Shown: positions 3 to 14,564, numbered from the stretch's first letter. The stretch is 20,000 bases of DNA from an uncultured virus (IMG/VR IMGVR_UViG_3300036832_000815) (IMGVR_UViG_3300036832_000815), one strand, 5' to 3'. Made by a program: numbers and translations. The notes: a model not told the origin generated them from the letters alone.

Positions 3-3000
3 ACCTGGACCGTTACTAGGGGAGCCGAGGGAGCCGCCCCCTGGGCGCACGTCGCAGGCTGGACGGCCATACCGGTCCTGACCGCCCAGGCGCTCGGTCA
101 GTTCCCCCGCTTCCCGCTGACCAACACCGCGGCCACGGCCGCCACGATCGAGTACCGCACCAACGTCACCGCCGATACCCAGTACCGCTTCACCATCACC
201 GCCGACGGCACCCAGTCCTGGGGCTCGGGCGCGGCGGTGGCCAAGTATGGGCTGGGTGGGGCCGAGCAGAACGTCAGCGGCTACGTCGGCCTACCCATCT
301 TGATGCCCAACGCCTCCAACGTGGCCACCCTGGCGGGGGTGATGTTCAACGGCAGCCAGGGATCCGGCATGGGCCTGGGCTTCGTGTCCGGCAGCCACGC
401 CGCCTTTGTCACCCCATCCGGGTACACCCTCTTCCTCAACAACGTCTCCCTCACCAGCACCCACACGGGCGTCCCAGGGATCAAGATCATCCTGGCCGCC
501 AGCCAGGGCTCCCCTGCCCTTCAGATCAACAACAGCGGTGGCTCGCTGCTGAGCTTCTTCGACCCCAACGGCAACCTGGGCATCAATGGGCCTGGGATTG
601 GGAATCTCTCCTACAACGTGCAGGTGGGGACGGCCAGTACCGGCTCGATCGGCATCGGTGGGGGCTCCATCAGTGAGGCCGGGGGCTACACCAAGTTCTA
701 CCGGGCCAGCGGCAACTTCGACTTCGAGTGGGGCACGGTAGCCTCGACGTTCTTTGGCGGTGGCCTGAACATTGCCGGTTCTGGGACGGCCACGATACCG
801 GCTCTACAAACGCAGGTCGGGAATCCTGCTTATCCAGCCCTGTCGGTTTTTGGGGCTGGTGGCCAAACCGGCAACATCATGCAGGTAGGCACGGCCAGTG
901 GCAATGGCGTCTTTGCAGTGGGACCGAAGCTGGCCCTGACGCTAGGTGCCTTTGATGCTACTACCATCCCACTTACTATCAGTGGTTACAGTGCCCAGAC
1001 CGCTGACTTGTTGGATCTTAAAAACTACGGTGGCACCGTAGTTACATCATTTGATAGTGGTGGTGGTCTTCATTTCAGCACCGATACAGCACTCTATCGT
1101 TCCAGCCCACAACAGCTAACTATCGGCTCTGGCAGCAACTCTTGGGACGTTGGCATACAGAACGGTGCTTCACTGACGTACCACGGCAATGCTATGAGTA
1201 CTGGTTATGCGCTTTCCCAAGATGCTAACAGTACCTATCTGAACGCCACGTCAGGTGGTTATGTCTTTTGCCGGAGTGGCAATGTCAATGACATCTGGAC
1301 CACCAATAACACAGGCATGACGCTCAACCGGCCCATAGGCATTGGTCGCATCGGCCAGCCCATGGCCGGAGTCTGGGTTTGGTCTGCGGCCACGGCTGCC
1401 ACCGACATCCCGTTAGTTCTCCAGGCCGGTAACGGCCAAACCGCCGACACCTTCGAGATCAGATCGTATGGCAACTCGATTATCTCTGGGTTTGACGCAA
1501 CCGGTCGATTGTACCTCGGTCCTACGCCATCCTTCGGTGCAGGTACTGGCCCCATGCTTTTCCTGGGTAATGACACCGCCGATCCCACCGCCAATCCCAC
1601 AGGCGGTGTCATACTCTATTCCTCGGCTGGAGTTCTCAAGGCCCGCACCCCCAGCGGGGCCATCGTCCAGTTAGCCCCCAGCACAGGAGTGGCCGCACCT
1701 CTCGTCTTGACCGCCCCTACGGCCACCACCGTGCCCTTGACCCTGGTCGGAGCAGCCAGCCAGAGCAGCGACCTGCTGGATGTCCAAAGCAGCGGCGGCT
1801 CCACTCTGGCGGCCATCGACGCTACCGGTGCGCTCTATGGCCCCTCGGTGGGTGGTTTCAACGGCAACGACCGGGTCTACTTCCCGGCCGGTAACTACGT
1901 GTCGGTGCCCCAGTACCTCAGCGTGGGCACCTCGGCGGCCACCAACAGCGGCCAACTCACGGTCTATCCCACCACCACCGGGACGACCGCTATCGCCGTC
2001 AGCCTCAAGGCCAGCCAGACCGGTGACGCCCTCACCATCTACAACTCGGGCGGCTCAGCCGTCCTGGGCATCAATGCCACCGGCCAGTTGTACATGGGCT
2101 CTTCTCAGTCCTTCGGCGGTGGCACCGGACCCATGCTGTTCCTCAACAATGACACCGCCGATCCGGGCTCGAACCCGTTCGGCGGGGTCGTCATCTTCTC
2201 GTCGGCGGGGGTACTCAAGGCCCGTACCCCTTCGGGCGCGATCGTGCAGCTAGCCCCTCAACCCGCTCCGGCCGGGGCCGCCTCGGGTGATCTGTCCGGC
2301 ACCTATCCCGGCCCCACCGTAGCCCGGATCAATGGCACCAGCGTCCCGGCCACCCCGACCTCGGGCCAGGTCCTCACGGCCACCTCCGGCACGGCGGCCA
2401 CCTGGCAGACCCCCGCTACAGGTGTCTCCTTCCCCCTGAGCAACACCGCCGCCGCCGCTACCACCATCGAGTACCAGACTCAGGTCACCGCCGACACTTT
2501 CTACCGCTTCACCATCAACGCCCGAGGCGATCACGCCTGGGGCAATGGGGCGGGAGCCACCGACACCAACCTGGCCCGTACCGGCAACGGCATCCTGGCT
2601 CTGACCGCCACGGCCAGAGCCGTCCTCAGCGTGCAGGGTGGCGTCGGCATCACCGAGCAGTCCGCTTCCGCCACCCCGCTGAACATCCAGGCTGCGGCCA
2701 GCCAGACTGGTCCACTCACCTCCTGGGCCAACTCCTCCGGCCAGGTCATCACCTGGATCGACTCCGCTGGCACCTTCAACACCTGGGTGGCGGCCGACAC
2801 CGTGGCCCGCTTCAACCTCAACGCCAACGGGTCCATGTCCTGGGGCCTGGGCAATGCCGGGCGCGACACCGGCCTCTTTCGCCAGGCAGCAGGACTGTTG
2901 GCCGTCGGTGGTAGCGCATCTGCGGCCAACGGCTGGGATGTCGGCAATACCGGCCTGGGTGGCTCCCTGGCCGGTCTGGTGGCTCACGGGATGAGCGGCA

Positions 3001-5975
3001 CCACGGCCTACGCCCTGGCCAGCGATGGTACCCAGACCATCCTCAACGCCCCCACGGCCATCTACTGCAAGATCGGGGCCTCCACCGGCATCTGGAGCGT
3101 CACCTCGGCGGGCACCCTGTTCAACAGCCCCACGGCCTGGGCCACTGCCACCCTCTCCTCCACCGTCCTGGCCGGTATCGGCATCAACGCCAGCAATGTC
3201 GTCGGACTGCAAGTCACCGCCAACTCCACCCAGACCGCCGATCTCCTGCAATGGCGCAGCAGCACCCCCACGGTGCTGGGCGGCGTCAATGGGGCAGGCC
3301 AGTTCTATGTGGGGACCAGCCCCAGCTTCGCAGGTGGCACCGGCCCCACCATCTACCTCGCCCCTAACACCGCGGACCCGTCCACCAATCCCACCACCGG
3401 GATCGTCCTGTACTACTCGGCCAATGCGCTCAAGGCCCGCGACGCCAACGGTGTCATCACCCAGATAGCCCCGGCCCTGACCTCGGGACCAGCCACGGCG
3501 GTGATGGGACCGGATGCTTTCGGGGCGGGCTCCACGGTGGGAGTCAGCACTCTCTTCGCTCGGCAGGATCACCGTCATGGCCTGCCTACCGCTCCAGTGG
3601 TGCCTACAGCCGCCACCACCGTCACAGGACCGGACGCCTTCGGTGCAGCCTCAGCGGTGGGAGTTAGCACCTTCTACGCCCGCCAGGACCACGATCACGG
3701 GCTCCCAGCCGCACCAACGACGAGCTTCCCACTCACTGACAGCACTCAGGCTGCTTCGGCCAACACTGAATACCAGACCCGCGTGTCAGGCGACACCTCA
3801 TATCGCTTCGTCATGTCCACGGGGGGATACTTGCAATGGGGCGTGGGCAGCGCCCCAGCAGACGCTTTCCTGCAACGAACGGGTGTCGGTGCGTTGCAGA
3901 TCAACAGTTCGCTCACGATCTCGACCAGCGCCGCGGGCACCACCCCCTTGTATGTCATCGGCACCTCGGGCCAGACTGCTGATCTGGTCCGCGTCACCAG
4001 CGGCACTGGCGTGCTGACACTTCAGCACACCGCCTCGGGTCAGACCACCATCACCGCCGCCACGGCGGCCGCGATCCCTCTCACACTGAAAGGGGCGGCC
4101 AGCCAGAGCGGGGATTTCCTGCAGATCCAGAACTCCGCTGGCACCATCCTGGCCAACTGGGTCGTTGCTTCGGCCGCTGTGGCCACCCTGAGGCTCAACG
4201 GCGGAGTCAACTCTGATCCCCTGCTGGAGAGCCTGGTCTCGGGCAATGCCTGGCAGCGGTTCCGTATAACAGCCGACGGCACCATGAGATGGGGGCCGGG
4301 CACGGCTGCCCCCGGCGCTTCCGGGACCACCGGCATCACGCTGGACTTCCCCTCGGCCAACTCCTTCAGGATCACCAACGGCACATCGCACGCGGCTTTC
4401 GCCAACACCGGCCTCTCCGGTGACATGGCCCTCTACAACGACGTTGGCTGGCTGTCCATCTCCGGCACCACTGGGGTCAACTACGGGGAAACCGGCGTCC
4501 TCATCGGTGAACTGAATCAGACAGCTTCAGAGTTCAACAACGATCATGTAGCTCTTTCCAGGCGCACCTCCATCGGCGTGGCTCCCGGCAATAACGCTCC
4601 GGCCGGTGTTTATGGATCAGGCACCGGGCCAATGCTGTTCCTGGCTAATGACACCGCTGATCCCACCGCCAATCCCACAGGCGGTGTGATCATTTATTCA
4701 TCAGGCGGAGTCCTAAAGCTGCGCGCCCCCACTACTTCTACTACTTTCTCTACACCCGGTACTGAGCTAGTTCTGGAGCAGACCGGTGATGCCGGGGGTG
4801 CCAGCCGTCTGCACATGCAAAACCGGGGTGGTTTGGCCGGGGCGTTGTTGGAAAGCACCGGCAATCCCATCACCGACCTGGGCTTCAAGGCCGCGGGCCT
4901 CAACCAGGCCCTCGTTCGCCTCGAAGGTCGCGCCGCCTACATCGGTGACGTAGGCAACGGCACCACCAACGGTGACCTCCAGATGCAGCCCAATCAGCAG
5001 CAGGCAGCCTGGTTCGGGATGGTCGGATCCGGCGTTACCGGCCGGTTCAGTTTGGGCGTCAATCCTCAAGCGGCCACCTGGGGCGGCGGCTCGGGCGGGA
5101 TGCTGTACATCGGCAATGACACCGTCGATCCCAGTAGCAGCGTTACCGGCGGAACCCTCCTCTTCTCCTCGGCTGGGGTCCTGAAAGCCAAGACCCCGGA
5201 TGGCACCGTCACCCCCCTCGCGCCCGGAGGAGCCTACGCCCCGGTCAGCAATGGTGTGGCCCCCAACGCCAGTCTTCCGGGGGCGGTGCCGCCTGCGGGG
5301 CTGCTCTGGGTGGACACCAGCGTGGCGGCTGCATCCTTCATCGGGCCACCGGGCCAGCCGGACCTGGGTGTCAACTCGGCTACCCCGGATTTGAATACCT
5401 TCCAGACCAGCGGGAACACAGTCTTCACCGGATCGCCCACCAATGCCCCACCCATACCTCCCGGTGCCTTTATCCTGACCGTGTTCACGATCGGCAATGG
5501 CACTTACATCCAGCAGCGAGCTACGTCTGTCGCCCTGCCGCAATACGTCGCCCATCGGGTGTACTCCGGTGGGGCCTGGGGCACCTGGAGGTCCCCGGCG
5601 GCCGGGCTCGTAACCTCTGTCCTCGGCCCCGCCTCAGTCTTGAACACGGCATCCAACACCGTTTGCACTATCACCTACTCAGTGATCGCTAATCGTCGTT
5701 ACCGTATCACAGCCTTTGGGAGTGGATCTCAGCAGACCAGTACCGGTGAAGTGCGGATATCTCTCAGTCAACCTACCGATACTGCACAGGGTCGTTTTGC
5801 CGATCTCTACAGCATCGTTGCCGGGGCCTTTGTAGCCGCAACCGGTGTCTATGTGTACTCACCCGGTGCCAGTGGATCTCAAACGTGGATCCTGATAGTT
5901 GGTACCACGGCAGGCACGATCAGTTGTGCGGCCAATCAGAGTTCCCTGTTTCTTGAAGATATAGGTACCAGCTAA
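3..5975 (+). CDS. Very large mosaic tail fibre / adhesin protein, 5'-truncated (>1990 aa), with a pyocin-knob-like domain and C-terminal jelly-roll head
   Basis: The frame of ORF 237..5975 is open back to position 3 (TWTVTRGAEGAAPWAH...FPLTNTAATAATIEYRT), so GTG 237 is not the true start. It is G/S/T/A-rich with several internal repeat families and HxH motifs. DLNTFQTSG...NAPP...QQRA...HRVYSGGAWGTWR (5388-5591) resembles a pyocin knob. The protein ends RRYRI...LFLEDIGTS. Confidence 0.85.
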   Translation, partial: TWTVTRGAEGAAPWAHVAGWTAIPVLTAQALGQFPRFPLTNTAATAATIEYRTNVTADTQYRFTITADGTQSWGSGAAVAKYGLGGAEQNVSGYVGLPILMPNASNVATLAGVMFNGSQGSGMGLGFVSGSHAAFVTPSGYTLFLNNVSLTSTHTGVPGIKIILAASQGSPALQINNSGGSLLSFFDPNGNLGINGPGIGNLSYNVQVGTASTGSIGIGGGSISEAGGYTKFYRASGNFDFEWGTVASTFFGGGLNIAGSGTATIPALQTQVGNPAYPALSVFGAGGQTGNIMQVGTASGNGVFAVGPKLALTLGAFDATTIPLTISGYSAQTADLLDLKNYGGTVVTSFDSGGGLHFSTDTALYRSSPQQLTIGSGSNSWDVGIQNGASLTYHGNAMSTGYALSQDANSTYLNATSGGYVFCRSGNVNDIWTTNNTGMTLNRPIGIGRIGQPMAGVWVWSAATAATDIPLVLQAGNGQTADTFEIRSYGNSIISGFDATGRLYLGPTPSFGAGTGPMLFLGNDTADPTANPTGGVILYSSAGVLKARTPSGAIVQLAPSTGVAAPLVLTAPTATTVPLTLVGAASQSSDLLDVQSSGGSTLAAIDATGALYGPSVGGFNGNDRVYFPAGNYVSVPQYLSVGTSAATNSGQLTVYPTTTGTTAIAVSLKASQTGDALTIYNSGGSAVLGINATGQLYMGSSQSFGGGTGPMLFLNNDTADPGSNPFGGVVIFSSAGVLKARTPSGAIVQLAPQPAPAGAASGDLSGTYPGPTVARINGTSVPATPTSGQVLTATSGTAATWQTPATGVSFPLSNTAAAATTIEYQTQVTADTFYRFTINARGDHAWGNGAGATDTNLARTGNGILALTATARAVLSVQGGVGITEQSASATPLNIQAAASQTGPLTSWANSSGQVITWIDSAGTFNTWVAADTVARFNLNANGSMSWGLGNAGRDTGLFRQAAGLLAVGGSASAANGWDVGNTGLGGSLAGLVAHGMSGTTAYALASDGTQTILNAPTAIYCKIGASTGIWSVTSAGTLFNSPTAWATATLSSTVLAGIGINASNVVGLQVTANSTQTADLLQWRSSTPTVLGGVNGAGQFYVGTSPSFAGGTGPTIYLAPNTADPSTNPTTGIVLYYSANALKARDANGVITQIAPALTSGPATAVMGPDAFGAGSTVGVSTLFARQDHRHGLPTAPVVPTAATTVTGPDAFGAASAVGVSTFYARQDHDHGLPAAPTTSFPLTDSTQAASANTEYQTRVSGDTSYRFVMSTGGYLQWGVGSAPADAFLQRTGVGALQINSSLTISTSAAGTTPLYVIGTSGQTADLVRVTSGTGVLTLQHTASGQTTITAATAAAIPLTLKGAASQSGDFLQIQNSAGTILANWVVASAAVATLRLNGGVNSDPLLESLVSGNAWQRFRITADGTMRWGPGTAAPGASGTTGITLDFPSANSFRITNGTSHAAFANTGLSGDMALYNDVGWLSISGTTGVNYGETGVLIGELNQTASEFNNDHVALSRRTSIGVAPGNNAPAGVYGSGTGPMLFLANDTADPTANPTGGVIIYSSGGVLKLRAPTTSTTFSTPGTELVLEQTGDAGGASRLHMQNRGGLAGALLESTGNPITDLGFKAAGLNQALVRLEGRAAYIGDVGNGTTNGDLQMQPNQQQAAWFGMVGSGVTGRFSLGVNPQAATWGGGSGGMLYIGNDTVDPSSSVTGGTLLFSSAGVLKAKTPDGTVTPLAPGGAYAPVSNGVAPNASLPGAVPPAGLLWVDTSVAAASFIGPPGQPDLGVNSATPDLNTFQTSGNTVFTGSPTNAPPIPPGAFILTVFTIGNGTYIQQRATSVALPQYVAHRVYSGGAWGTWRSPAAGLVTSVLGPASVLNTASNTVCTITYSVIANRRYRITAFGSGSQQTSTGEVRISLSQPTDTAQGRFADLYSIVAGAFVAATGVYVYSPGASGSQTWILIVGTTAGTISCAANQSSLFLEDIGTS
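1530..5225 (+). repeat. Five dispersed ~50-aa modules in the fibre (GPMLFLxNDTADPxxNPxGGVxxYSSxGVLKAR)
   Basis: Copies at about 1530-1679, 2109-2258, 3324-3473, 4611-4730 and 5079-5225. Positions 1568-1609 and 4646-4687 match at 41 of 42 nt. Confidence 0.9.
3492..3716 (+). repeat. Tandem 40-aa (120-nt period) repeat with HxH motif
   Basis: ATAVMGPDAFGAGSTVGVSTLFARQDHRHGLPTAP and ATTVTGPDAFGAASAVGVSTFYARQDHDHGLPAAP. Confidence 0.9.
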
Positions 5976-6895
5976 TGCCTGCTCTCAAGTACTGGGATGC
6001 CGGGAGCAGTCAGTACGTCCTGCTCATGCCGGGGACACCGACCACCTTCCCGCTTATCTACACCCAGACTTTGACCGCTCCTACGGTGGTCTCGTCGCCG
6101 TATCAGGTCAACCACAACCTCGGTACCACCACCCCACTCGTACAAGTTTATGATGCCGTAACCGGCCAGCTTGTCATGGTCGGTATCACGGTGGCCAACA
6201 GCAACTCCATCCAGGTCAGCGTGTCGGCCAACATGCCGAACAACGTCAACGTGGTGGTGGTCGGGACAGCCCAGTCACCGATACCGATCAACCCCGCGGA
6301 CCAGGCCAGCAAGTCCTACGTCGATGCCCGTACTCCCAACCTGCCTGCCCCCATTACCTCAGGTAGCGGTGTGCAGAGCTTCACCGATGTCCTGGGCGAT
6401 GTATGGGTGGCCGCCAACGGCGTGAACTCGGGCGCGTGGAAGCGGGCACGGGATGTCATTCGCGCTCGGGTCTATCGTAATGCCGCTTACACCGTACCGG
6501 GGATAAACACCGCCACCGGCATGCCTTTTGACAGCACTAATGATGATGCTTACAGCGGATGGTCGGCGTTGAACACCACTTCGGCTATCTACACTTGTCC
6601 AATAGCGGGTCGTTATCTGGTGATGACCAGGTGTGACCTACTAGGTACCAGTGTGGCTGCTCGGCTTTTTAGCTCTGTGTATAGAGGAGCTAATCTTGCA
6701 GGTGTAGTTGAATCAATGCGAGGTGTTGATCTTACTCAGAACTCAAACACTCCTCTGACTTCAACTAATGCTGGGACGATGTTTTGCAATGTCCAAGACG
6801 TGGTGCAGATGAGGTTTTACGCCACCATTGCTCAAGCCTTTGAAGTTGGTACGGCGATGGCTTGGATGGATATTCAGTACATAGGAACGTCCTGA
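5975..6895 (+). CDS. Fibre/receptor-binding protein, paralogue 1 (HNLG beta domain, SKSYVD fibre motif, shared linker, C1q-like head)
   Basis: TAATG overlap with the upstream gene. Motifs: VNHNLGTTTPLVQVYD, DQASKSYVD (ATKxYVD-type), NLPAP...FTDVLGDVWVA...WKRARDV, and the C1q-like signature FD...D...YTCPIAGRY. Confidence 0.75.
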   Translation: MPALKYWDAGSSQYVLLMPGTPTTFPLIYTQTLTAPTVVSSPYQVNHNLGTTTPLVQVYDAVTGQLVMVGITVANSNSIQVSVSANMPNNVNVVVVGTAQSPIPINPADQASKSYVDARTPNLPAPITSGSGVQSFTDVLGDVWVAANGVNSGAWKRARDVIRARVYRNAAYTVPGINTATGMPFDSTNDDAYSGWSALNTTSAIYTCPIAGRYLVMTRCDLLGTSVAARLFSSVYRGANLAGVVESMRGVDLTQNSNTPLTSTNAGTMFCNVQDVVQMRFYATIAQAFEVGTAMAWMDIQYIGTS

Positions 6896-8076
6896 TGGCC
6901 AAGCTCAGCACGTTGGAGTATGCCTTTGTGGGCCTCTCCAATCCGCCTTGGGCCAGTTCGAATGCGGCCGGAGGCTCGTTTTCGGCCGCGAGCGGGCAAC
7001 TGACCATGAACGTCCCGGCGAACACGGCCAGCGCCCACGCGTCGTTGGTCACCTACACCAGCGGTGCCTACACCTATTGGGATATCACCGAGAGTTCCAT
7101 CGTCGTCCGGGTGGTGAACGCGGGGACGCAAAACGCCACTCTCGAACTGTGGGCACCCCAGTTGGTGGACTCCTCCGGCAACTGGTTTGGATGGCACATC
7201 GCCAATGGCCAGATCCAGGCCGACTACGAGGGCACCATCATAGCGTCGGCCACTTACAATGCCTTCACTCACGCCTGGTTGAGGATACGTGAGACGGCCA
7301 GTACCACCTACTTCGACTACTCCTCTGATGGCGTGAACTGGACCAATCTCACCTCTTATGCCGATACCGCTCATAACTACGTACCGACGGCGGTCTATGT
7401 AAACTTCTACCTGGGCAGCAACAGCAGCGGCACCAATCCTGCCACTACAGCGGTCCTCGACAACCTCAACTTGACACCACCTGTCTTCGCCCAGGTACCT
7501 GACTACAGCCTCAGCAATAATCTACCTGCTCCGGTCGCCACCACCACCATCCAATCCTTCACTGATCTGAACGGCGAAGTATGGGTGGCTAAGAACACCG
7601 CCAATGCCAACAACGGGCAGTGGCGGCGCGCCCGTGACGTGTTGATGGGCAGGATTTGGCGTAGTGCCGCTCTGAACTTCGCTGCTAGCCCCGGCAACGT
7701 CATCGCCTTTGACACCGTGGCTGGCGACAACTTCGGCATGTATACCGGAGCCAGCTTCTATGGTTTCTCGGTGCCCATTGCTGGCTGGTACGAGGCAATG
7801 GGCAACCTCCAGGCCACTTCCTCTGTGGCGAACACCTACGTTCAGGGATCCATCCAGCAGAACACCGGTCCCTCCAATGGCACCGTCGTCAACTGGTCCA
7901 GCGACAACTACTTCACCTCGCGGGCTTCGGGTGGCCTGCTCTGGCGCTCCAAGGCCCTGATGTACCTGGCCGCCAATGACATCGTCAACATCAAGGCGTA
8001 TAACCAGAACCTGTTCGCAGTATCCGGGGGCGCGGTCTGCTCCTTCCTCTGCCTCGCCTACATGGGGTCAGGATGA
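6895..8076 (+). CDS. Receptor-binding protein, paralogue 2 (N-terminal ConA/LamG-like lectin domain, shared linker, C1q-like head), 393 aa
   Basis: Start reassigned from 6862 to ATG 6895, which overlaps the upstream stop (TGATG). HAWLRIRETASTTYFDYSSDGVNW is a ConA-like motif. FDTVAGDNFGMY...FSVPIAGWY is C1q-like. Confidence 0.75.
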   Translation: MAKLSTLEYAFVGLSNPPWASSNAAGGSFSAASGQLTMNVPANTASAHASLVTYTSGAYTYWDITESSIVVRVVNAGTQNATLELWAPQLVDSSGNWFGWHIANGQIQADYEGTIIASATYNAFTHAWLRIRETASTTYFDYSSDGVNWTNLTSYADTAHNYVPTAVYVNFYLGSNSSGTNPATTAVLDNLNLTPPVFAQVPDYSLSNNLPAPVATTTIQSFTDLNGEVWVAKNTANANNGQWRRARDVLMGRIWRSAALNFAASPGNVIAFDTVAGDNFGMYTGASFYGFSVPIAGWYEAMGNLQATSSVANTYVQGSIQQNTGPSNGTVVNWSSDNYFTSRASGGLLWRSKALMYLAANDIVNIKAYNQNLFAVSGGAVCSFLCLAYMGSG

Positions 8077-8633
8077 GCATCCTGACCTACGCCCCTCTCG
8101 ACAACCTTTCTGCCCCGGTGGTCACCGGCACTACCACCCAATCATTCCAGGACATATACGGTGAGGTGTGGGTGGCAGAGAGTGGGATAAGGAACGGGCT
8201 TTGGTTCAAGGCCCGTGAGGTCTTGCATGGTCACGTCACTCGGAGCGCAGCCTTCACCCCTCCTACCACCCCGAGCCTCTTCGGGTGGGACACCGTGGTA
8301 GGTGATCCGTTTGGAATGTATGTGGCGAGTCCTACCTACGGGTTCGTGGTGCCGGTGACGGGCTGGTATCACGTCAATGCCCAGTGGTACTGCGGGATCC
8401 CTACCACGCAGGATTACTCCGGGATTCGCATCTATCAAAATACCACTATGATGACCAATGAGAACATGATCCAGAACTTGGCGAACGGTGGTGTCCATGC
8501 CAAATCGCAACTGGATATCTATGCTGCTGCTAACGACACCTTCACCATGCAGTACTGGACCAGCGTGGCTGCGACTGCTTCTGGGTCAGTACTGTTCAAT
8601 CATTTTTACGTGAGTTATCTGGGGTCGGCGTGA
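8073..8633 (+). CDS. Stand-alone linker + C1q-like head protein, paralogue 3
   Basis: ATGA overlap. NLSAP...QSFQDIYGEVWVA...WFKAREV, then WDTVVGDPFGMY...FVVPVTGWY; ends YLGSA. Confidence 0.75.
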   Translation: MSILTYAPLDNLSAPVVTGTTTQSFQDIYGEVWVAESGIRNGLWFKAREVLHGHVTRSAAFTPPTTPSLFGWDTVVGDPFGMYVASPTYGFVVPVTGWYHVNAQWYCGIPTTQDYSGIRIYQNTTMMTNENMIQNLANGGVHAKSQLDIYAAANDTFTMQYWTSVAATASGSVLFNHFYVSYLGSA

Positions 8634-9193
8634 GCATTCCTATTTACACCACGCTCAATGATCTACCTGCCCCGGTGACAACCGGCGGCATTCAGGCTTT
8701 CACCGATGTGTACGGCGAACAATGGGTGGCCAAGCCGGGTGTCTATAACGGATCCTGGCGCAAGGCTCGCGACGTGCTGCACGCCGTGATCTATCGCAAT
8801 GCGGCCCTAGCCAACATGCCCACATCGTCTGCTACCTTCATTGCCTATGATACGGTGCTTCGGGATGTCTATGGCATGTTCTCCAGCAATGGGTTCTTGA
8901 TACCAGCCGCCGGTTGGTATCGCATCCAGGCCACCGGTAATACGAACGCCGCCGCCATCGGTCAGTACGCCACGACCTGGATCTTCGGTGGTCCCTCCGC
9001 GGGTACGACTATAGGGCAGGGGAACAACGTCACTGTTCTTGCCAGTGGTGGCATGAGTTGTCGGGCCTTCGTGGAGACGGTCTGCGCGGTCAATGACCTG
9101 ATCAAGAGTACAACTGTTCAGCCTCAAGGAAATGCCGGGCAGGTCGGTCAGGGGAACATGCGTCTGGAAATCTCGTACATAGGAGCCGGTTAG
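8630..9193 (+). CDS. Stand-alone linker + C1q-like head protein, paralogue 4
   Basis: GTGA overlap. DLPAP...QAFTDVYGEQWVA...WRKARDV, then YDTVLRDVYGMF...FLIPAAGWY; ends YIGAG. Confidence 0.75.
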   Translation: MSIPIYTTLNDLPAPVTTGGIQAFTDVYGEQWVAKPGVYNGSWRKARDVLHAVIYRNAALANMPTSSATFIAYDTVLRDVYGMFSSNGFLIPAAGWYRIQATGNTNAAAIGQYATTWIFGGPSAGTTIGQGNNVTVLASGGMSCRAFVETVCAVNDLIKSTTVQPQGNAGQVGQGNMRLEISYIGAG

Positions 9194-9201
9194 GAGGATC
9201 A

Positions 9202-9786
9202 TTGAGCTATTTGACCTACGCCTTGTTGACCGAGGACGTGAACTTCGGACGACGGTCCCGTGCCTGCATCAACGAGACCGCCAATAGTCTTAATCAAGAC
9301 AGTAATCCTGCCATAGCAGCGTTAGCTACCGATCTGCTGAAGCAAGAAGGATTGCAGACCGTTGTCATGCTCAACTCCATCTGTGCTGGCCCGAACTTCA
9401 GTGAACTCGTTGACAATGGCGATGGCACCATCGACTCCACCAAGATCTCTGACGAGGACATCAAGGCTCATACCCAGGCCATGTTCACCGAGGTGGCGTG
9501 GATCTTCTATCCCGACAAGATGCCGAGTGGAACACCTCTGCCGCCCTCGGTTGATGCCGTGGATCCCACCAGTGGTCCCAACGGCACTCCTATCACGCTC
9601 ACGGGGGTGTCCCTGAGCGGGACCACCAAGGTCGCCCTGGGCGGAACGACCTGCACCGATCTGAACGTGGATAGCGACACCCAGGTGACGGCCGTGACCC
9701 CGTCCGGTCCCAACAAGGGTGCCCGATCCATCGTGGTGACCGTGGACGGCACCGATGTCTCTGGCCCCAGTTTCCAGGTTACTTAG
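9202..9786 (+). CDS. Fibre-associated small protein (possible assembly chaperone) with C-terminal IPT/TIG Ig-like domain
   Basis: AGGAGG at 9192-9197 precedes the TTG start. PSVDAVDPTSGPNGTPITLTG...VDSDTQVTAVTP is a typical IPT/TIG pattern (9541-9783). The N-terminal half is paralogous to 9819..10154. Confidence 0.7.
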   Translation: MSYLTYALLTEDVNFGRRSRACINETANSLNQDSNPAIAALATDLLKQEGLQTVVMLNSICAGPNFSELVDNGDGTIDSTKISDEDIKAHTQAMFTEVAWIFYPDKMPSGTPLPPSVDAVDPTSGPNGTPITLTGVSLSGTTKVALGGTTCTDLNVDSDTQVTAVTPSGPNKGARSIVVTVDGTDVSGPSFQVT

Positions 9787-9818
9787 ACTCCATCGATCCC
9801 AATCACCTCGGAGGTGTT

Positions 9819-10154
9819 ATGAGCTACAGCGCCGTCAGTTTGCTGAACCAAGATCCCGCCTACGCCGGACGGGTCCGGTCCTGTGTCACCGAGCAGGCCG
9901 CCTCGTTGACCGGGGACGCCAATCTGGCCACGGCGGCCTGCGCCAACGCCGGGCTGCGCGGTGACCCGGTCATCATGGACACCTTCGTGCGGACCACCTC
10001 CAGCGCCCCTGGCCTGGGTGACAAGGCCGACAAGGGTGATGGCACCGTCGATCAGACCCTGATCGCGGACGGCGACATCCTGGCCGCCATCCAGGCCAAC
10101 TTCCCCAGAGTGGCGGCGCTGTTCTTCAACGACGAAGGAGTGAGGATCGCATGA
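9819..10154 (+). CDS. Fibre-associated small protein, paralogue of the N-terminal domain of 9202..9786
   Basis: GGAGG RBS. Shared pattern MSY..LL..D....R.R.C..E.A.SL ... DxGDGTxDxT.I.D.DI.A..QA.F..VA..F. Confidence 0.7.
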   Translation: MSYSAVSLLNQDPAYAGRVRSCVTEQAASLTGDANLATAACANAGLRGDPVIMDTFVRTTSSAPGLGDKADKGDGTVDQTLIADGDILAAIQANFPRVAALFFNDEGVRIA

Positions 10155-10378
10155 GCCCAGGGAAGAAGGAATCCAGCACCCGCATGCGCCTGGTGGGCTG
10201 GAACGTCCAGCCCGTCCTCATGGCCGACGACGGTGACAACCTGACCCCGGTCCAGGTGGGGGCCACCATGATCTCGGCCGCCAACTGGGACGAGTTCAAG
10301 GAGGGCGGCGACAAGCTGGCCCTGGAAGACCTGCGGACTCAGATCGAGAACGGAAAGGCCGAGCCCAGCAGCCCCTGA
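10151..10378 (+). CDS. Hypothetical protein (75 aa)
   Basis: ATGA overlap, AAGGAG/GAGG upstream, GC3-rich codon usage. Confidence 0.65.
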   Translation: MSPGKKESSTRMRLVGWNVQPVLMADDGDNLTPVQVGATMISAANWDEFKEGGDKLALEDLRTQIENGKAEPSSP

Positions 10379-10387
10379 GGTGATTTG

Positions 10388-11890
10388 GTGATCCTGGCTG
10401 CCACCTCGACTCTGACGGCCACCGTCACCGTTACCGGGCTGTCAGTCACTCCGCTCGCTGCGCCGGTAAGCCCGATGGCGGGTGTGTTAGGCGCGCCGGT
10501 CGGGAACTTTGTACTGAGCAAGCCGCTGGTGGCCGGGGCAGCCGGTGCCGTCGGCATGTCGGCCAGCACCGGCATGGTGATCCAGGGACAGGTCACCCAG
10601 GTGGCCCAGGTGGCTCTATCGGGCTCTTCCGGGATGACCCTGGCTGGGACGGTGGCCCGTCAGGCTTCGATCGCTCTGTTCGCCACGGCCGGGATGACGG
10701 TGGCCGGAGCCGTCACCCAGGCCGCCTCAGTGGCCCTGTCGGGGACCGCCAGCCTGACCCCCACCGGTATTCGTATCGTGCCTGCCACGGTGCCCCTGAG
10801 CGCCTCTGGGGGGCTCACCGTGGCCGCCACCCAGATGGTCATCGCCACCGTGGCGGAGTCGGCCACCGCCAGCCTGACGGTGACTGGGATTCTCGCCCAG
10901 CAGGCCGCCATAGCCCTGACCGGGAATACCACCCTGACCGTCGCCGCCACCGTCAGCGAGTTCGCGGCCCTGGCCTTGTCGGGGACGGGATCCTTATCGA
11001 TCGCCGCCTCTTTGACGGTCTTGGGGTCGGTGCCCATGGCGGCGCTGACCTCCCTGACGACTAGCGGAGTGTCCGTACCGGGCACGGCCGTCTTCATGGG
11101 GGCCACCACCACCCTGACCATGACGGTGATGGTCACCGAGATCGCCGCCATAGCCCTGACCGGCAGCATCAGCCTGACCATCGCCGGGGTGGTGATCCGC
11201 TCCGCCGGGGTGATCATGAGCGCCACCGCCGGGTCCACCATTGCCGCCCTGGTGACCGAGTGGGCGGCCGTCGTCATGACCGCCAGCGCCAGCCTGACAG
11301 CCGTGGCCCTGGTCAAGGAGTTGGCCAGCGTTTCCATGGCCGCTCTGGCCAGCCTGACGGTGGCAGGCGGGATCACCGTGAACGCCGTCATAGCCATGGC
11401 CGCCCTGACCACTCTGAGCGCCGCGGCCTCGATCATCGAGCTTGCCACCGTGGCCCTGACCGGCTCCGCTTCCCTGACCGGGGCGGCCTCGGTCAAGGAG
11501 TTCGGGGTGGTGGCCCTGTCGGCCAGCGCCACCCTGCTGCCGGTGGGCCTGGTCATCGAGGTCGCCGCTGTGGCCCTGTCGGCCACTGGTTATCTCACCG
11601 CCAGCAGCCTGGTCATCGAAGTGGCCGCGGTGGCCATATCGGCCACTTCTGTCCTCACTATCACCGGTATAACCACCGAAGTTGCCGCTCTTGCTTTTCT
11701 GAGTGCTACCGCCGTTCTTTTCAGCGGTTATGTCGTTGAGGTAGCCTCGGTCGATCTGAGCGCCAAAGCCGGAATGATCGTCCATGCGGGCGTCTATCCG
11801 GCTAGATTTGTATTCAGAGATCTGATTCGAGCCCACGCCGAGCTTTATCCCTATCCGGCGGTCGGTACCACGCTGGAGACCTCAGGCTAG
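10388..11890 (+). CDS. A/T/V/S-rich protein of ~21 repeats with exact 20-aa period; putative fibre scaffold/ruler
   Basis: GAGGTGA at 10377-10383 favours GTG 10388 (TTG 10385 is possible). Consensus VxEvAxVALSATASLTVxGx runs without register slips over about 10532-11791. Confidence 0.75.
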   Translation: MILAATSTLTATVTVTGLSVTPLAAPVSPMAGVLGAPVGNFVLSKPLVAGAAGAVGMSASTGMVIQGQVTQVAQVALSGSSGMTLAGTVARQASIALFATAGMTVAGAVTQAASVALSGTASLTPTGIRIVPATVPLSASGGLTVAATQMVIATVAESATASLTVTGILAQQAAIALTGNTTLTVAATVSEFAALALSGTGSLSIAASLTVLGSVPMAALTSLTTSGVSVPGTAVFMGATTTLTMTVMVTEIAAIALTGSISLTIAGVVIRSAGVIMSATAGSTIAALVTEWAAVVMTASASLTAVALVKELASVSMAALASLTVAGGITVNAVIAMAALTTLSAAASIIELATVALTGSASLTGAASVKEFGVVALSASATLLPVGLVIEVAAVALSATGYLTASSLVIEVAAVAISATSVLTITGITTEVAALAFLSATAVLFSGYVVEVASVDLSAKAGMIVHAGVYPARFVFRDLIRAHAELYPYPAVGTTLETSG

Positions 11891-11900
11891 GAGAACCCCC

Positions 11901-12836
11901 ATGACCGCCCTGCCCAATCCGGCTCCCGGCAATCCTCCGGCCAACCTGGAGGACTACGTCTACGTCACCCAGCAGGGCAACGACCAGGTGGGCATCATCA
12001 TCAACGTGGGCGGGGTGCCCACCGACCCGGATGGTCAGGTGGTGCTGGTGGCCATGACCCCTGATCAGATCGGATCCAACCCGGTGTTCACCGGCCGCGA
12101 CGCCGTGCGTGAGTACACCGGGGCCTACAGCTACACCTTCCTGTCCGCCGACACCGCCGTCTCCGGTCACTACCACCTGGCCTGGACCTACCAGCTATCC
12201 GGCGTCCCCGACACCTTCCTGACCCCCATCGAGGTCGGTCCCTACAGCCCGGCCTACTTGGCCTTGCCCGCCGATATGCGGGCCATCATCGAACTGGTTT
12301 GGGCCAGGTTCGCGGACGGCTACGACTACGCCTTCGGTGGCCCGCACCTGCAGAGCTACTTCCAGAGCCACTTCGGCCGGGGCCGCATGGCCCAGTTGCT
12401 GCAGATCGTCATCATGACCGTCAACACCTCCATGCAGCCGGTCAGCAGCTACTCCCTGACCGGACCCTCCAGCGATCCCAACGTCCCCCCGATGGGGCCA
12501 GCGTTTCCGGTCCAGCAGTGGAGTGGCCTGCTGATCAGCGGGCTGACCATCGAGGTGTTCAAGCACCTGATGCGCTCCTACGTGGAGGAGCCCATGGCCG
12601 AGAACGTCACCGCGGCGCGTATGACCCGGCGGGATTACCTGGAGCGCTGGGGCGAACTTCTGGCCGTCGAACAGCAGACCTACCAGCAGATGTTCGAGGT
12701 GTTCAAGATCCGCCAGATGTTCGCGGGCCTGCAGCCCAGGGTGATGGTCTCGGGCGGGGTGTTCGGCAACTTTGGTCCCACCCGGCTGGCAGGCAATGCC
12801 GCGGCCCGGCCCCGCTATTGGACAAGGTGGTACTAA
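11901..12836 (+). CDS. Putative head-to-tail adaptor with N-terminal Ig-like domain
   Basis: AGGAG RBS. The N-terminal part is beta-rich (TGAYSYTF...GHYHLAWTY). The helical C-terminal part (VWARFADGYD..GGPHLQSYFQSHFGRGRMAQLL...RRDYLERW) recalls actinomyovirus neck proteins. It lies upstream of the sheath. Confidence 0.6.
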   Translation: MTALPNPAPGNPPANLEDYVYVTQQGNDQVGIIINVGGVPTDPDGQVVLVAMTPDQIGSNPVFTGRDAVREYTGAYSYTFLSADTAVSGHYHLAWTYQLSGVPDTFLTPIEVGPYSPAYLALPADMRAIIELVWARFADGYDYAFGGPHLQSYFQSHFGRGRMAQLLQIVIMTVNTSMQPVSSYSLTGPSSDPNVPPMGPAFPVQQWSGLLISGLTIEVFKHLMRSYVEEPMAENVTAARMTRRDYLERWGELLAVEQQTYQQMFEVFKIRQMFAGLQPRVMVSGGVFGNFGPTRLAGNAAARPRYWTRWY

Positions 12837-12840
12837 GCCC

Positions 12841-13038
12841 ATGCAATACCTCAACACAAGTGCCAATGACTATGCCGTGAACTACACCGTGTCAACGGCC
12901 AATATCAGCCAGGTGTCCTGGAAGCTCTACGAGCCGCCCAGCGACCCCTCAGAGCCGCCCTGTGGCGTCCGGGAGCCCCGCAGGCCCCTGCTACCCACCG
13001 GCTCGGCCAGCCAGGCCCTGGCGCTGCCTGAGGGCTGA
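12841..13038 (+). CDS. Small hypothetical protein (65 aa) with GVREPRRP motif
   Basis: ATG 4 nt after the upstream stop, in frame with ORF 12772..13038. It fills the gap between genes but has no clear RBS. Confidence 0.45.
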   Translation: MQYLNTSANDYAVNYTVSTANISQVSWKLYEPPSDPSEPPCGVREPRRPLLPTGSASQALALPEG

Positions 13039-13060
13039 TCAGAGCGACGAAGGGGTGAGA
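13037..13060 (+). promoter_or_regulatory. Repeated 24-bp motif, copy 1 (GATCAGAGCGACGAAGGGGTGAGA); candidate late promoter/operator
   Basis: Identical to 18375-18398 at 22 of 24 nt; lies directly before ATG 13060. Confidence 0.5.
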
Positions 13061-13317
13061 TGCCCGACAGCAGTGACACCAGCACCTCCAGGCAGGAGAC
13101 GCGCCTGGCCAAATGGTCCGAGGAGCAGACCCAGGCCGCCGCGGCTCATCACGGGGTAGCCCCCGAGGACCTAACCCACGAACACTTCGCGGCCCTGGAC
13201 TGGGCACCGGCCGAGGAGATCCGGGTCGATCACATCAGTGGCCGGGTGGTCCACCTCGACAGCCACGGCAATCGGCGGGTCATGACCATCGAGGAATGGA
13301 ACCGGGAGGAACACTAG
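13060..13317 (+). CDS. Hypothetical 85-aa protein; possibly the separated N-terminal part of the next gene
   Basis: AAGGGG upstream, GC3-rich codons, stop 2 nt before GTG 13320. Confidence 0.6.
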   Translation: MPDSSDTSTSRQETRLAKWSEEQTQAAAAHHGVAPEDLTHEHFAALDWAPAEEIRVDHISGRVVHLDSHGNRRVMTIEEWNREEH

Positions 13318-13319
13318 AG

Positions 13320-13709
13320 GTGGAGACCAACGTCGGTATCGGCATCATGGAGCAGCTTCTGACCGGCACCGCTCAGCCCACTCCCTTCGACGGTGGTCAT
13401 GCCCGCATCGGGGTGGGGGACGGCAACGGCTCGGTGCCCACCGTCCACGCCACCGACACCGCCCTGGTGGCCACCACCAACAAAGCCTTCGTGGGCATGA
13501 ACTCCGGGTTCCCCCAGCAGTCCGGCCAGGTCATGACCTGGCAGGCCACCTTCCCGGCCGGGGTGGGCACCTTCTTCTGGCGGGAGTGGTGCATCGACAA
13601 CGGCAACGGGGGTGGGCCGGGGCAGCTTTTCAACCACGTCGGGATCTCGATGGGCAACAAGACGGCCGGGACCACCTGGACCTTCCAAGTTTCGGTGACG
13701 CAGTCCTGA
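13320..13709 (+). CDS. Small beta-sandwich virion protein (tail-collar/fibre subunit-like), 129 aa
   Basis: Start reassigned from 13113 to GTG 13320 (GGAGG at 13305-13309). Motifs TNVGI...RIGVGDG...TDTAL...WQATFP...WREW..DNG...FNH...K...TWTFQVSVT. Confidence 0.65.
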   Translation: METNVGIGIMEQLLTGTAQPTPFDGGHARIGVGDGNGSVPTVHATDTALVATTNKAFVGMNSGFPQQSGQVMTWQATFPAGVGTFFWREWCIDNGNGGGPGQLFNHVGISMGNKTAGTTWTFQVSVTQS

Positions 13710-14152
13710 TGCCCTTCACCAACTACCTCGATCAGAAGCTGGCCGGGCTGTTCCTGGGCAACACCGCCTACGTCATCCCCGCCAACCTGTACCTGGGCCT
13801 GTCCTCCACGGCTCCCACTCAGACCCAGGTGGGCTCCCCGGTCTGGAACTTCACCGAGCCCGCCGGTAACGCCTACGCACGGGTGACGGTGCCCAACAAC
13901 TCTACCAACTTCGGGCCGATCGGCACCGAGCCCCCGGCCGGGTACACCATCCAGAACAAGCTGGTCATCACCTTCCTGCAAGCCAGCGGACCCTGGCTGG
14001 CGGGAGCCCCGCTGTCCTACTTCGGGCTCTTCGACGCCCTCACCGCAGGCAACCTGTGCCTGTACGGGACCTGCTCCCCGGCCCAGACGGTGGGCTCCGG
14101 GAACATCACGCTTTCATTCGCCGCTGGCGCGCTGAACATCACGCTGAACTAA
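13709..14152 (+). CDS. Small beta-sandwich fibre 'bead' protein (gp80-like), 147 aa
   Basis: Start reassigned to ATG 13709 (TGATG overlap). Motif FTNYL...LYLGLSSTAP...EP.GNAYARV...N...ITF..A...W....YFGLFDALTAGNL..YG...FAAGAL.I. Confidence 0.7.
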   Translation: MPFTNYLDQKLAGLFLGNTAYVIPANLYLGLSSTAPTQTQVGSPVWNFTEPAGNAYARVTVPNNSTNFGPIGTEPPAGYTIQNKLVITFLQASGPWLAGAPLSYFGLFDALTAGNLCLYGTCSPAQTVGSGNITLSFAAGALNITLN

Positions 14153-14162
14153 GGAGCAAACA

Positions 14163-14561
14163 ATGCCCGTAGGAGTCGCCACTCCGACCGCCAACAGCAT
14201 TCTGGCATTGATGCTCAACGGTACCGCTTATGCCGGGAACACCACCCTATACGCCCAGTTGCACATCGGTCAACCAGGACCGGCGGGCACGGCCAATGTA
14301 GCGGGCGAGAACCTGCGGGTTACGTGCGGGACTGCACCGGAGTTCAGCGCTCCTGCCAACGGGGCCTGCACCAACAACAATCCCATTACCTGGTCAGCCG
14401 TTACCACCAACGAGACCTACGCCTTTGTCACGCTGTGGACGGCGCTTACGGGCGGGACCTTTATAGCGTCAGGATCCATCTCTGCCCAGCCGGTAGTAGT
14501 CGGCAACAACTTCTCCATCCCGGCCGGAGGCTTGTCTGTTTCGCTGCCTGTAGCGAGTTAG
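14163..14561 (+). CDS. Second small beta-sandwich fibre 'bead' protein (gp80-like paralogue), 132 aa
   Basis: AAGGAG RBS. LYAQLHIGQPG..GTAN...R...N...ITW...LWTALTGGTF..SG...IPAGGLSV aligns by eye with 13709..14152. Confidence 0.7.
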   Translation: MPVGVATPTANSILALMLNGTAYAGNTTLYAQLHIGQPGPAGTANVAGENLRVTCGTAPEFSAPANGACTNNNPITWSAVTTNETYAFVTLWTALTGGTFIASGSISAQPVVVGNNFSIPAGGLSVSLPVAS

Positions 14562-14564
14562 CCT

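Follow-up and report, generated by a model that had tools for sequence, protein, structure and literature searches.

A coupled array of four C1q/TNF-like head genes in the tail module of an uncultured phage, a candidate set of receptor-binding tips

The stretch of DNA analyzed here comprises 20,000 nucleotides (nt) from an uncultured virus (IMG/VR IMGVR_UViG_3300036832_000815) and is referred to as the window throughout. It holds the tail and fibre module of a high-GC phage (56–68% GC per kb), with every large open reading frame (ORF) on the plus strand, and the subject of this work is an array of four co-directional genes within it, ORF1 to ORF4. Each encoded chain carries a conserved neck of approximately 40 amino acids (aa) at its C-terminal side, followed by a divergent head of approximately 140 aa (Table 1). 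ORF1 and ORF2 bear N-terminal additions of about 120 and 205 aa, respectively, and ORF3 and ORF4 consist of neck plus head only. The four genes each overlap their upstream neighbour, by 1, 1, 4, and 4 nt, at the junctions TAATG (giant fibre gene to ORF1), TGATG (ORF1 to ORF2), ATGA (ORF2 to ORF3), and GTGA (ORF3 to ORF4); the ORF2 frame can additionally be extended upstream to a TTG at 6862, within ORF1. An earlier reading of the sequence alone (the original prediction) had described four tandem genes with overlaps of 1–4 nt, a shared segment in each, divergent heads with a common chain end, and extra N-termini in two of them. All of this was recovered, and the shared segments translate exactly at the neck coordinates of Table 1. 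Past the neck, the heads measure 145, 144, 136, and 138 aa in ORF1 to ORF4; all four show the pattern D..x..D..YG..P.aG.Y, with GRY in place of GWY in ORF1, and all four chains end on Y-[IML]-G-x-x.

Table 1. Position of the array genes, their parts, and neighbouring features in the window (nt unless aa is given; A2, a profile built from 15 family sequences).
Feature	Position	Strand	Details
Giant fibre protein	3..5975	+	frame open at the 5' end of the window; ends 1 nt into ORF1
Giant fibre repeats (five, ~60 aa)	about 1497-1678, 2076-2257, 3291-3472, 4575-4756, 5077-5197		
ORF1, long form	5975..6895	+	306 aa; A2 profile E 8.8e-59
ORF1 N-terminal beta-hairpin	aa 4-17		
ORF1 beta-sandwich stalk	aa 27-97		
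ORF1 spacer	aa 101-118		low confidence
ORF1 neck	6338-6457	+	
ORF1 head	6458-6892	+	C1q/TNF-like
ORF2, long form	6895..8076	+	393 aa from ATG 6895; A2 profile E 6.2e-68
ORF2 putative ConA/LamG-like domain	about 6895-7494	+	~200 aa
ORF2 neck	7519-7641	+	
ORF2 head	7642-8073	+	
ORF3, short form	8073..8633	+	186 aa; A2 profile E 2.7e-70; ~10 residues ahead of neck
ORF3 neck	8103-8222	+	
ORF3 head	8223-8630	+	
ORF4, short form	8630..9193	+	187 aa; GTG start
ORF4 neck	8660-8776	+	
ORF4 head	8777-9190	+	
Downstream neighbour, C-terminal IPT/TIG domain	9202..9786	+	194 aa; PF01833 E 6e-10
Periodic ORF	10385-11890		501 aa
Gp80 fibre-domain genes	13586-14152; 14163-14561		PF23140, E 2.6e-24 and 8.1e-19
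Tail sheath	18484-19959		phrog_2839, E 1.7e-75

The purine-rich, Shine-Dalgarno-like bases of each downstream gene fall within the codons for the C-terminal Y-x-G-x-x of the gene upstream, at 6880–6897 (ATAGGAACG..TGATG), 8060–8075 (ATGGGGTCAGGATGA), and 8617–8632 (CTGGGGTCGGCGTGA), and the end of the giant gene at 5962–5977 (GATATAGGTACCAGCTAATG) is laid out likewise. As the signal lies inside conserved codons, the end of the protein and the coupling signal are one element.

The four proteins are paralogues. All six pairwise blastp comparisons in a five-protein database gave 66–107 bits (E 1e-15 to 2e-31), and similarity is distributed unevenly along the chain, with 50–64% aa identity in the neck and only 15–33% in the head.

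With regard to the fold of the head, the AlphaFold2 (AF2) model of ORF4, computed from the A2 alignment at a predicted local distance difference test (pLDDT) score of 87.6, is a compact ten-strand jelly-roll beta-sandwich of approximately 130 aa and, at the level of the fold, belongs to the C1q/TNF class. The closest structures by VIA-align were EDA-A1 (1rj7; Z 15.3, root-mean-square deviation (rmsd) 2.8, 136 residues aligned), the Caprin-2 C1q domain (4oul; 15.2, 2.5, 128), and C1QL1 (4d7y; 15.0, 2.6, 128), and in an exhaustive structural alignment against 48,161 chains, 52 reached a Z of at least 8. Foldseek returned 271 chains at E ≤ 0.001, led by TL1A, Caprin-2 C1q, and C1QL2/3, and the best matches in BFVD were annotated as 'C1q domain containing protein [uncultured Caudovirales phage]', tail fibre, and minor tail proteins. 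At the sequence level, the A2 profile matched the human C1q C chain among the PDB sequences with an E of 0.0044, and Caprin-2 and the EMILIN-1 gC1q domain more weakly. The proposal of C1q-like heads was thus borne out. However, the Pfam check suggested alongside it failed, as no PF00386 match was obtained for any of the array proteins, even with a cut-off of E ≤ 1. Among the relatives, three of 24 long forms pass the PF00386 gathering threshold of 23.7 bits (L012, 36.6; L015, 38.0; L021, 27.9 bits) and three more match below it, while 22 of 69 short forms match at E ≤ 1, the best at 4.1e-06. The match in L015 (aa 610–706) lies inside a neck-plus-head module that itself matches the family profile at 3.4e-33, so homology to C1q is transitive for the window proteins. 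The heads are therefore genuine, if distant, members of the C1q/TNF superfamily, and the window proteins fall below Pfam's own threshold for PF00386.

The two long forms differ in what they carry ahead of the neck. The AF2 model of ORF1 (pLDDT 77.2) shows an N-terminal hairpin, a seven-strand beta-sandwich, and a low-confidence spacer leading to the neck. The sandwich is a stalk unit, and in many long relatives the same domain is repeated one to five times in tandem directly before the neck. The first 171 aa of ORF2 match phrog_14065 (E 7.3e-10), and Atlas structure leads for this N-terminus gave a TM of 0.79 to a LamG-like cluster and of 0.74 to one with GH43_C2, the latter sufficient for naming; the domain thus appears to resemble the ConA/LamG jelly rolls of the GH43_C2/DUF1349 type. 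Domains of the ORF2 type were also seen in locus L002, where a 1,884-aa protein encoded at 8934–14588, downstream of a seven-copy array, has three of them (32–34% identity to the ORF2 domain; phrog_14065 E 9.4e-42).

The family to which the neck-plus-head module belongs is large. A profile search of 1.84 billion representatives found 2,115 clusters (50% identity) at E ≤ 0.001 and 179 at E ≤ 1e-30, and the Atlas neighbours of the module are viral clusters. A set of 159 family sequences divides into 89 short forms (up to 215 aa), 51 longer proteins with one C-terminal module, and 19 multi-head proteins. The internal heads of multi-head chains lack a neck, which indicates that the neck goes with the terminal head. 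Such chains can be very long: P0013 (1,754 aa), P0014 (2,144 aa), P0027, P0029, P0041, and others string together 4–10 tandem neck-less C1q-like heads with short spacers, and several of these metagenomic proteins begin with 'MYYD..L.YWNG..W'. They could be either beads on a trimeric string or single-chain pseudo-trimers. Collagen-like Gly-X-Y runs occur in several relatives, for example in P0020, P0035, P0044, and the protein encoded at 5841–7694 of L012. The latter reads MPALRYWDG, Gly-X-Y, head, Gly-X-Y, head, Gly-X-Y, stalk, neck, and head, which is the collagen/C1q architecture in a phage. The four window translations contain no Gly-X-Y run and hence no collagen stalk of the complement C1q kind. 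Another fused form is found at 1881–4646 of L015 (identical to P0016), where two complete neck-plus-head modules are joined through a Gly-rich spacer. Among cultured phages (50,697 records), tblastn with ORF4, P0025, and ORF1 gave no match, nor did a megablast search with the array. Two pattern scans (A2, A4) of 185,579 species genomes confirmed no relative either, which is weak evidence of absence given the narrow patterns.

Conservation within the family is concentrated in the neck, whose signature reads LPxPxTxGxxQxFTDxxGxxWVAxxGVxxGxWxxARDVL, with a chain end of Y-x-G-T-G. Over 147 modules taken from 50%-identity representatives, it amounts to 3.05 bits per position in the neck versus 1.64 in the head. 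A prediction of three ORF4 copies as a complex gave interface scores (ipSAE) of 0.79, 0.84, and 0.83 (median 0.83), compared with 0.00 for the best of three controls; the partner pLDDT did not fall below 84, and at least 80% of the contacts were common to the runs. In the calibration of this score, 20 of 30 proteins solved as one-chain pairs and one of 23 solved as single chains attained the mark. ORF4 is accordingly predicted to be a homotrimer, and the predicted interface comprises neck residues 28–30, 39, 43–51, and 53 together with the C-terminal residues 184–187 near the axis, which points to the C-terminal half of the neck as the trimer base. Conservation is no lower in the N-terminal half (LPxPxTxGxxQxFTD), which lies outside the confident contact list. 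That half is for this reason a candidate adaptor surface, bearing in mind that residues missing from such a list are merely uncertain. The original prediction had cast the whole segment as a docking linker; what stands is a trimer neck for one half, and a docking role for the other is our inference.

Two other identities of the neck were considered. It is not the 'YYD..L.YW.G..W' / 'LKYWDG' hairpin found at the N-termini of long fibres: a neck hidden Markov model (HMM), searched with --max in the giant protein, in the N-termini of ORF1 and ORF2, and in 70 long relatives outside their modules, matched no N-terminus, and its best whole-sequence E of 0.0013 belonged to aa 241–262 of P0091, directly ahead of the module of that protein. 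Atlas features pointed to a cluster with 45% Mtd_N members (PF18454, Bordetella phage BPP-1; score 0.94). An hhalign comparison of alignment A4 with BPP-1 Mtd gave a probability of 0.1%, a weak test with a single-sequence template, and none of 69 relatives matched Mtd_N.

The copy number of the module varies between related genomes. From 24 viral loci compared, 21 distinct ones remained beside the window, since L003, L011, and L019 duplicate L002, L010, and L018, and the module occurs one to seven times in each of these. The counts are minima, as some arrays reach contig ends. With the window included, 12 of the 22 distinct loci have one module-bearing gene (among them L015, a single gene with two modules), three have two (L009, L010, L018), one has three (L021), four have four (the window, L001, L012, and L004, the last with a neck-less fifth head), and L016 and L002 have five and seven, respectively. 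Every array opens with a long form, and the later genes encode approximately 185–200 aa. An overlap by 1 or 4 nt is present in 23 of 26 adjacent pairs of module genes. The flanks of seven relatives were scanned, four of them single-copy loci (L005, L006, L013, L022), and in these four the genes for the tape measure, Dit-like, and minor-tail proteins precede the module gene, which in L013 is followed directly by an endolysin gene. These single-copy module genes thus occupy the classical siphovirus receptor-binding position (tape-measure/Dit/Tal).

A tree of 50 modules revealed the same positional order in three genomes, namely the window, L001, and L002. The first module of the window groups with the first of L001 (support 0.97), the second with L001_2 and L002_5 (0.98), the third with L001_3 and L002_6 (0.92), and the fourth with L001_4 and L002_7 (0.95). 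The duplications are therefore old, in agreement with the low nucleotide identity of the necks among the paralogues (51–69%, longest common exact word 9–11 nt). In comparison with the closest relative L001, the flanking proteins share 76–90% aa identity, the N-terminal domains 90% (ORF1) and 82% (ORF2), and the necks 83% (ORF1), 67% (ORF2), and 79% (ORF4). The ORF3 neck was left out, as its single best match fell on the L001 ORF2 neck and has no positional value. The heads share only 41–53% and are the fastest-evolving part of the region.

The reading that we favour, with a probability of roughly 55%, is that each of the four genes gives rise to a homotrimeric receptor-binding tip of its own, one contractile-tailed phage thus making and displaying four separate tips together. 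In such a tip, the C-terminal half of the neck would pack round the three-fold axis against the conserved C-terminal Y-x-G-x-G, and the C1q/TNF head would carry exposed loops and an inter-subunit face of its own, both different in each paralogue. Tight translational coupling would yield all four proteins together, and as a consequence a virion would show several binding specificities at once, as a fixed multi-receptor repertoire and not as a switch. Of the long forms, ORF1 would come with a stalk and ORF2 with an additional lectin-like domain. ORF3 and ORF4, being short forms, would hold on by the neck alone, which makes its exposed N-terminal half the likely adaptor to a conserved socket. Of the options that the original prediction had named, plug-in alternative tips that need neither DNA inversion nor a diversity-generating retroelement (DGR) fit best. 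No near-identical direct repeat of the DGR kind covering a head was found, no flanking inverted repeat was detected apart from one weak inverted pair (72%, arms 8.4 kb apart), and a scan of 17 window ORFs turned up neither a reverse transcriptase nor a recombinase family.

Several lines of evidence favour separate homotrimeric tips. One is the homotrimer prediction for ORF4, with the placement of half of the neck in the predicted trimer interface. Another is the divergence of the head interface, where paralogues are identical in 40 of 252 comparisons of positions (16%) versus 153 of 553 (28%) for other head positions, with an interface list that derives from one predicted ORF4 model and was mapped to the other three by an alignment uncertain in the variable head; this difference fits an insulation against mixed assembly. 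A further one comes from the relatives, in which Gly-X-Y runs between heads imply three parallel like chains.

Several points weigh against this reading. Some of the interface positions belong to apical loops, whose variation may have to do with the ligand, and the neck interface residues G29, W43, R47, D/E48, V49, and L/I50 are common to all four paralogues, so the neck itself would not prevent mixing. The high trimer score may reflect the memory of the model for solved TNF/C1q trimers, and its calibration was done on two copies, not three. Furthermore, the modules of ORF2 to ORF4 cluster with their orthologues in a single clade (support 0.99) made up of exactly three positions from each of three genomes, always in one order, and L002 holds a second internal trio (0.91); an obligate three-chain complex would match such a pattern as well. 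No anchor domain is recognizable in the short forms, and the socket is a postulated one. Finally, the presence of the array proteins in virions is inferred.

Mixed heads, which the original prediction had named first, are disfavoured and in our view unlikely. ORF2, ORF3, and ORF4 would here form an obligate three-chain tip, or all chains would mix in combination through a universal neck, in the manner of the A, B, and C chains of animal C1q. Beyond the ordered trios and the shared neck residues, the near-equal synthesis expected from tight coupling would suit such an assembly, and the structural matches of the head include the solved heterotrimers LTa1b2, an APRIL-BAFF-BAFF single-chain construct, and C1q. 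However, mixed heads are difficult to reconcile with one module gene in 12 of 22 distinct loci and with arrays of two, four, five, and seven, and ORF2 bears an extra domain of 200 aa, yet its orthologue L002_5 is a short form. The confident homotrimer prediction, the poorly conserved head interface, and the like chains implied by Gly-X-Y runs argue in the same direction. The more specific proposal that the neck is a universal mixing device, with the ordered trio of ORF2 to ORF4 giving an asymmetric three-chain tip or a combinatorial set of mixed tips, is a shade less probable still.

A branched or serial fibre is about as doubtful as mixed heads in general. Short homotrimers would in this case dock by their necks on the preceding array protein or on the giant fibre instead of the baseplate, and the product would be one multi-headed fibre. 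Relatives offer precedents, in that P0016/L015 fuses two complete modules, L012 5841–7694 bears three heads on one chain, and single chains with 4–10 heads are known; moreover, short forms always have a long form upstream. Against this, the neck is missing from the internal heads of multi-head chains, and the giant-fibre repeats are confined to the window and L001, being absent from the flanks analyzed for L002 and the other loci. Lastly, a cassette store, in which the downstream copies would mainly be a source of heads to be exchanged by recombination at the conserved neck and not tips in simultaneous use, is very improbable: every copy does have a conserved and then a variable segment, and the heads do differ strongly between close relatives with similar flanks, but a neck nucleotide identity of 51–69% with identical runs of at most 11 bases is too little for homologous exchange within the array, a separate start codon and translational coupling are found for each copy, and the copies are ancient and have kept their order.

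C1q-like heads were already suspected to be host-recognition proteins of uncultured phages. Marine-phage C1q-domain proteins encoded beside tail fibres were proposed to be receptor-binding, with N-termini more conserved than the heads (Mizuno et al. 2014, PMC3909814), C1q-domain putative receptor-binding proteins were likewise described in glacier phages (Bellas et al. 2020, PMC7468147), and C1q-like proteins also appear in fibres of extracellular contractile injection systems (eCIS; PMC12923769). As far as these published descriptions go, the marine and glacier proteins resemble those of the window in a C-terminal C1q-like head encoded near tail fibre genes, in a conserved N-terminal part with a variable head, and in their interpretation as the host-recognition step. 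They differ in that they are described as single genes from podovirus-like or Mu-like genomes that pass the Pfam C1q model. The window family, in contrast, presents four to seven old paralogues in one coupled array of a myovirus-like genome and is defined by a neck motif of approximately 40 aa for which there is no Pfam model, with window proteins below the Pfam C1q threshold. No tandem array of C1q genes in phages was found in the published literature, in which full-text searching was limited. New are thus a family defined by its neck, the size of this family, the lack of any match to it in cultured phages at the sensitivity of tblastn, the coupled arrays of one to seven genes, and the ancient, ordered paralogues. 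The tail-fibre chaperone of Pam3 was considered as a TNF-like precedent and dropped, as that chaperone is not TNF-like.

Among solved structures, several phage heads share the jelly roll of ORF4, namely PRD1 P5 (1yq5/1yq8; Z 12.9), cyanophage A4 (9k09; 12.8), the short tail fibre of cyanophage A-1(L) (8ke9; 12.7), the receptor-binding domain of mycobacteriophage TM4 gp23 (9n6a; 10.8), and the receptor-binding protein (RBP) of lactococcal phage 1358 (4l92; 9.3), the last with an alignment over residues 21–187 of the ORF4 model that includes part of the neck. Their sequence identity to ORF4 is 11–16%, and none was found through a sequence search. These five phage heads are single-copy homotrimers. 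Fibre tips of Bacillus BclA/ExsFA and the Bdellovibrio MAT fibre have the same fold (1wck, 7r1m, and 8ol4; Z 13.3, 13.5, and 11.6), and Pfam BclA_C matches 14 of 69 short-form relatives at E ≤ 1; unlike the window proteins, they are cellular surface fibres and lack the neck motif. Animal C1q, an obligate heterotrimer of A, B, and C chains from three tandem genes, shares the fold (Z 13.7 to 6z6v_C and 5hzf), the tandem paralogous genes, and the weak profile similarity to its C chain, and in relatives, though not in the window proteins, also the combination of head and collagen-like runs. It differs by its collagen stalk, its neck, and the heterotrimeric assembly disfavoured here. In its gene layout, the array recalls phages such as CBA120 with its tailspikes, G7C, and phiK64-1, in which several side-by-side RBPs with a shared adaptor end and different tips are displayed together, while the short forms recall the minimal RBP BppL of TP901-1, which is short and docks through a small N-terminal element. 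The tips of multi-RBP phages are mostly beta-helix depolymerases or lactococcal head domains, whereas all tips of the window array are C1q-like and their shared element is also part of the predicted trimer base.

The analysis defines a large family without Pfam annotation, and its short, highly conserved neck offers a practical means of recognizing receptor-binding genes on metagenomic phage contigs. It also reveals that phages stack one to seven of these putative tips in coupled arrays; the gene order is retained across great evolutionary distances, and the heads are the part that diverges fastest. Should the neck prove to be a common plug, head exchange in laboratory phage-host studies would have a natural junction there. 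If mixed trimers do form, the C1q heterotrimer would have its first analogue in a phage, and few genes would multiply receptor specificities.

The surroundings of the array are those of a contractile tail. The sheath at the far end of the window shows approximately 34% identity to its counterparts in Mycobacterium phages Phabba and Myrna and matches 228 phage records, nearly all of them actinophages; upstream of it lie a tail-collar fibre N-terminus and two genes with Gp80 fibre domains. Directly ahead of the array, the giant fibre protein was read over 1,990 aa (1,912 aa counted from a GTG at 237). Its five repeats carry the motif G-x-G-P-M-L-F-L-x-N-D-T-A-D-P...G-V-L-K-A-R-T-P, one copy weakly matches phrog_19576 (E 1.8e-11), and four copies are present in the partial sequence of the L001 orthologue and in no other locus compared. 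Repeats of this kind could have been docking sites for the heads, but the repeat HMM matched the window and L001 only and not the seven-copy locus L002 (8-kb flanks), which argues against a general docking ladder. A fifth head at the C-terminus of the giant protein, which also ends in IGTS, was rejected as well (hhalign 0.5% for the C-terminal 246 aa; no match to the A2 profile).

Downstream, the gene for the IPT/TIG protein begins 8 nt past ORF4, preceded by GGAGGA. It does not match the A2 profile and is therefore a context gene. Its product is 64% identical to the L001 counterpart, below the surrounding genes except the repeat ORF, and may be another surface-exposed tail component. The periodic ORF farther downstream is rich in Ala, Val, Thr, Leu, and Ser and consists of units of approximately 20 aa (60 nt); Pfam and PHROG searches with it gave no match, and it is only 49% identical to its L001 counterpart, versus 77–85% for neighbouring genes. 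The two Gp80 genes (podophage GP4 fibre I) are adjacent paralogues and represent a second tandem duplication of a fibre-related gene within the tail module of the window.

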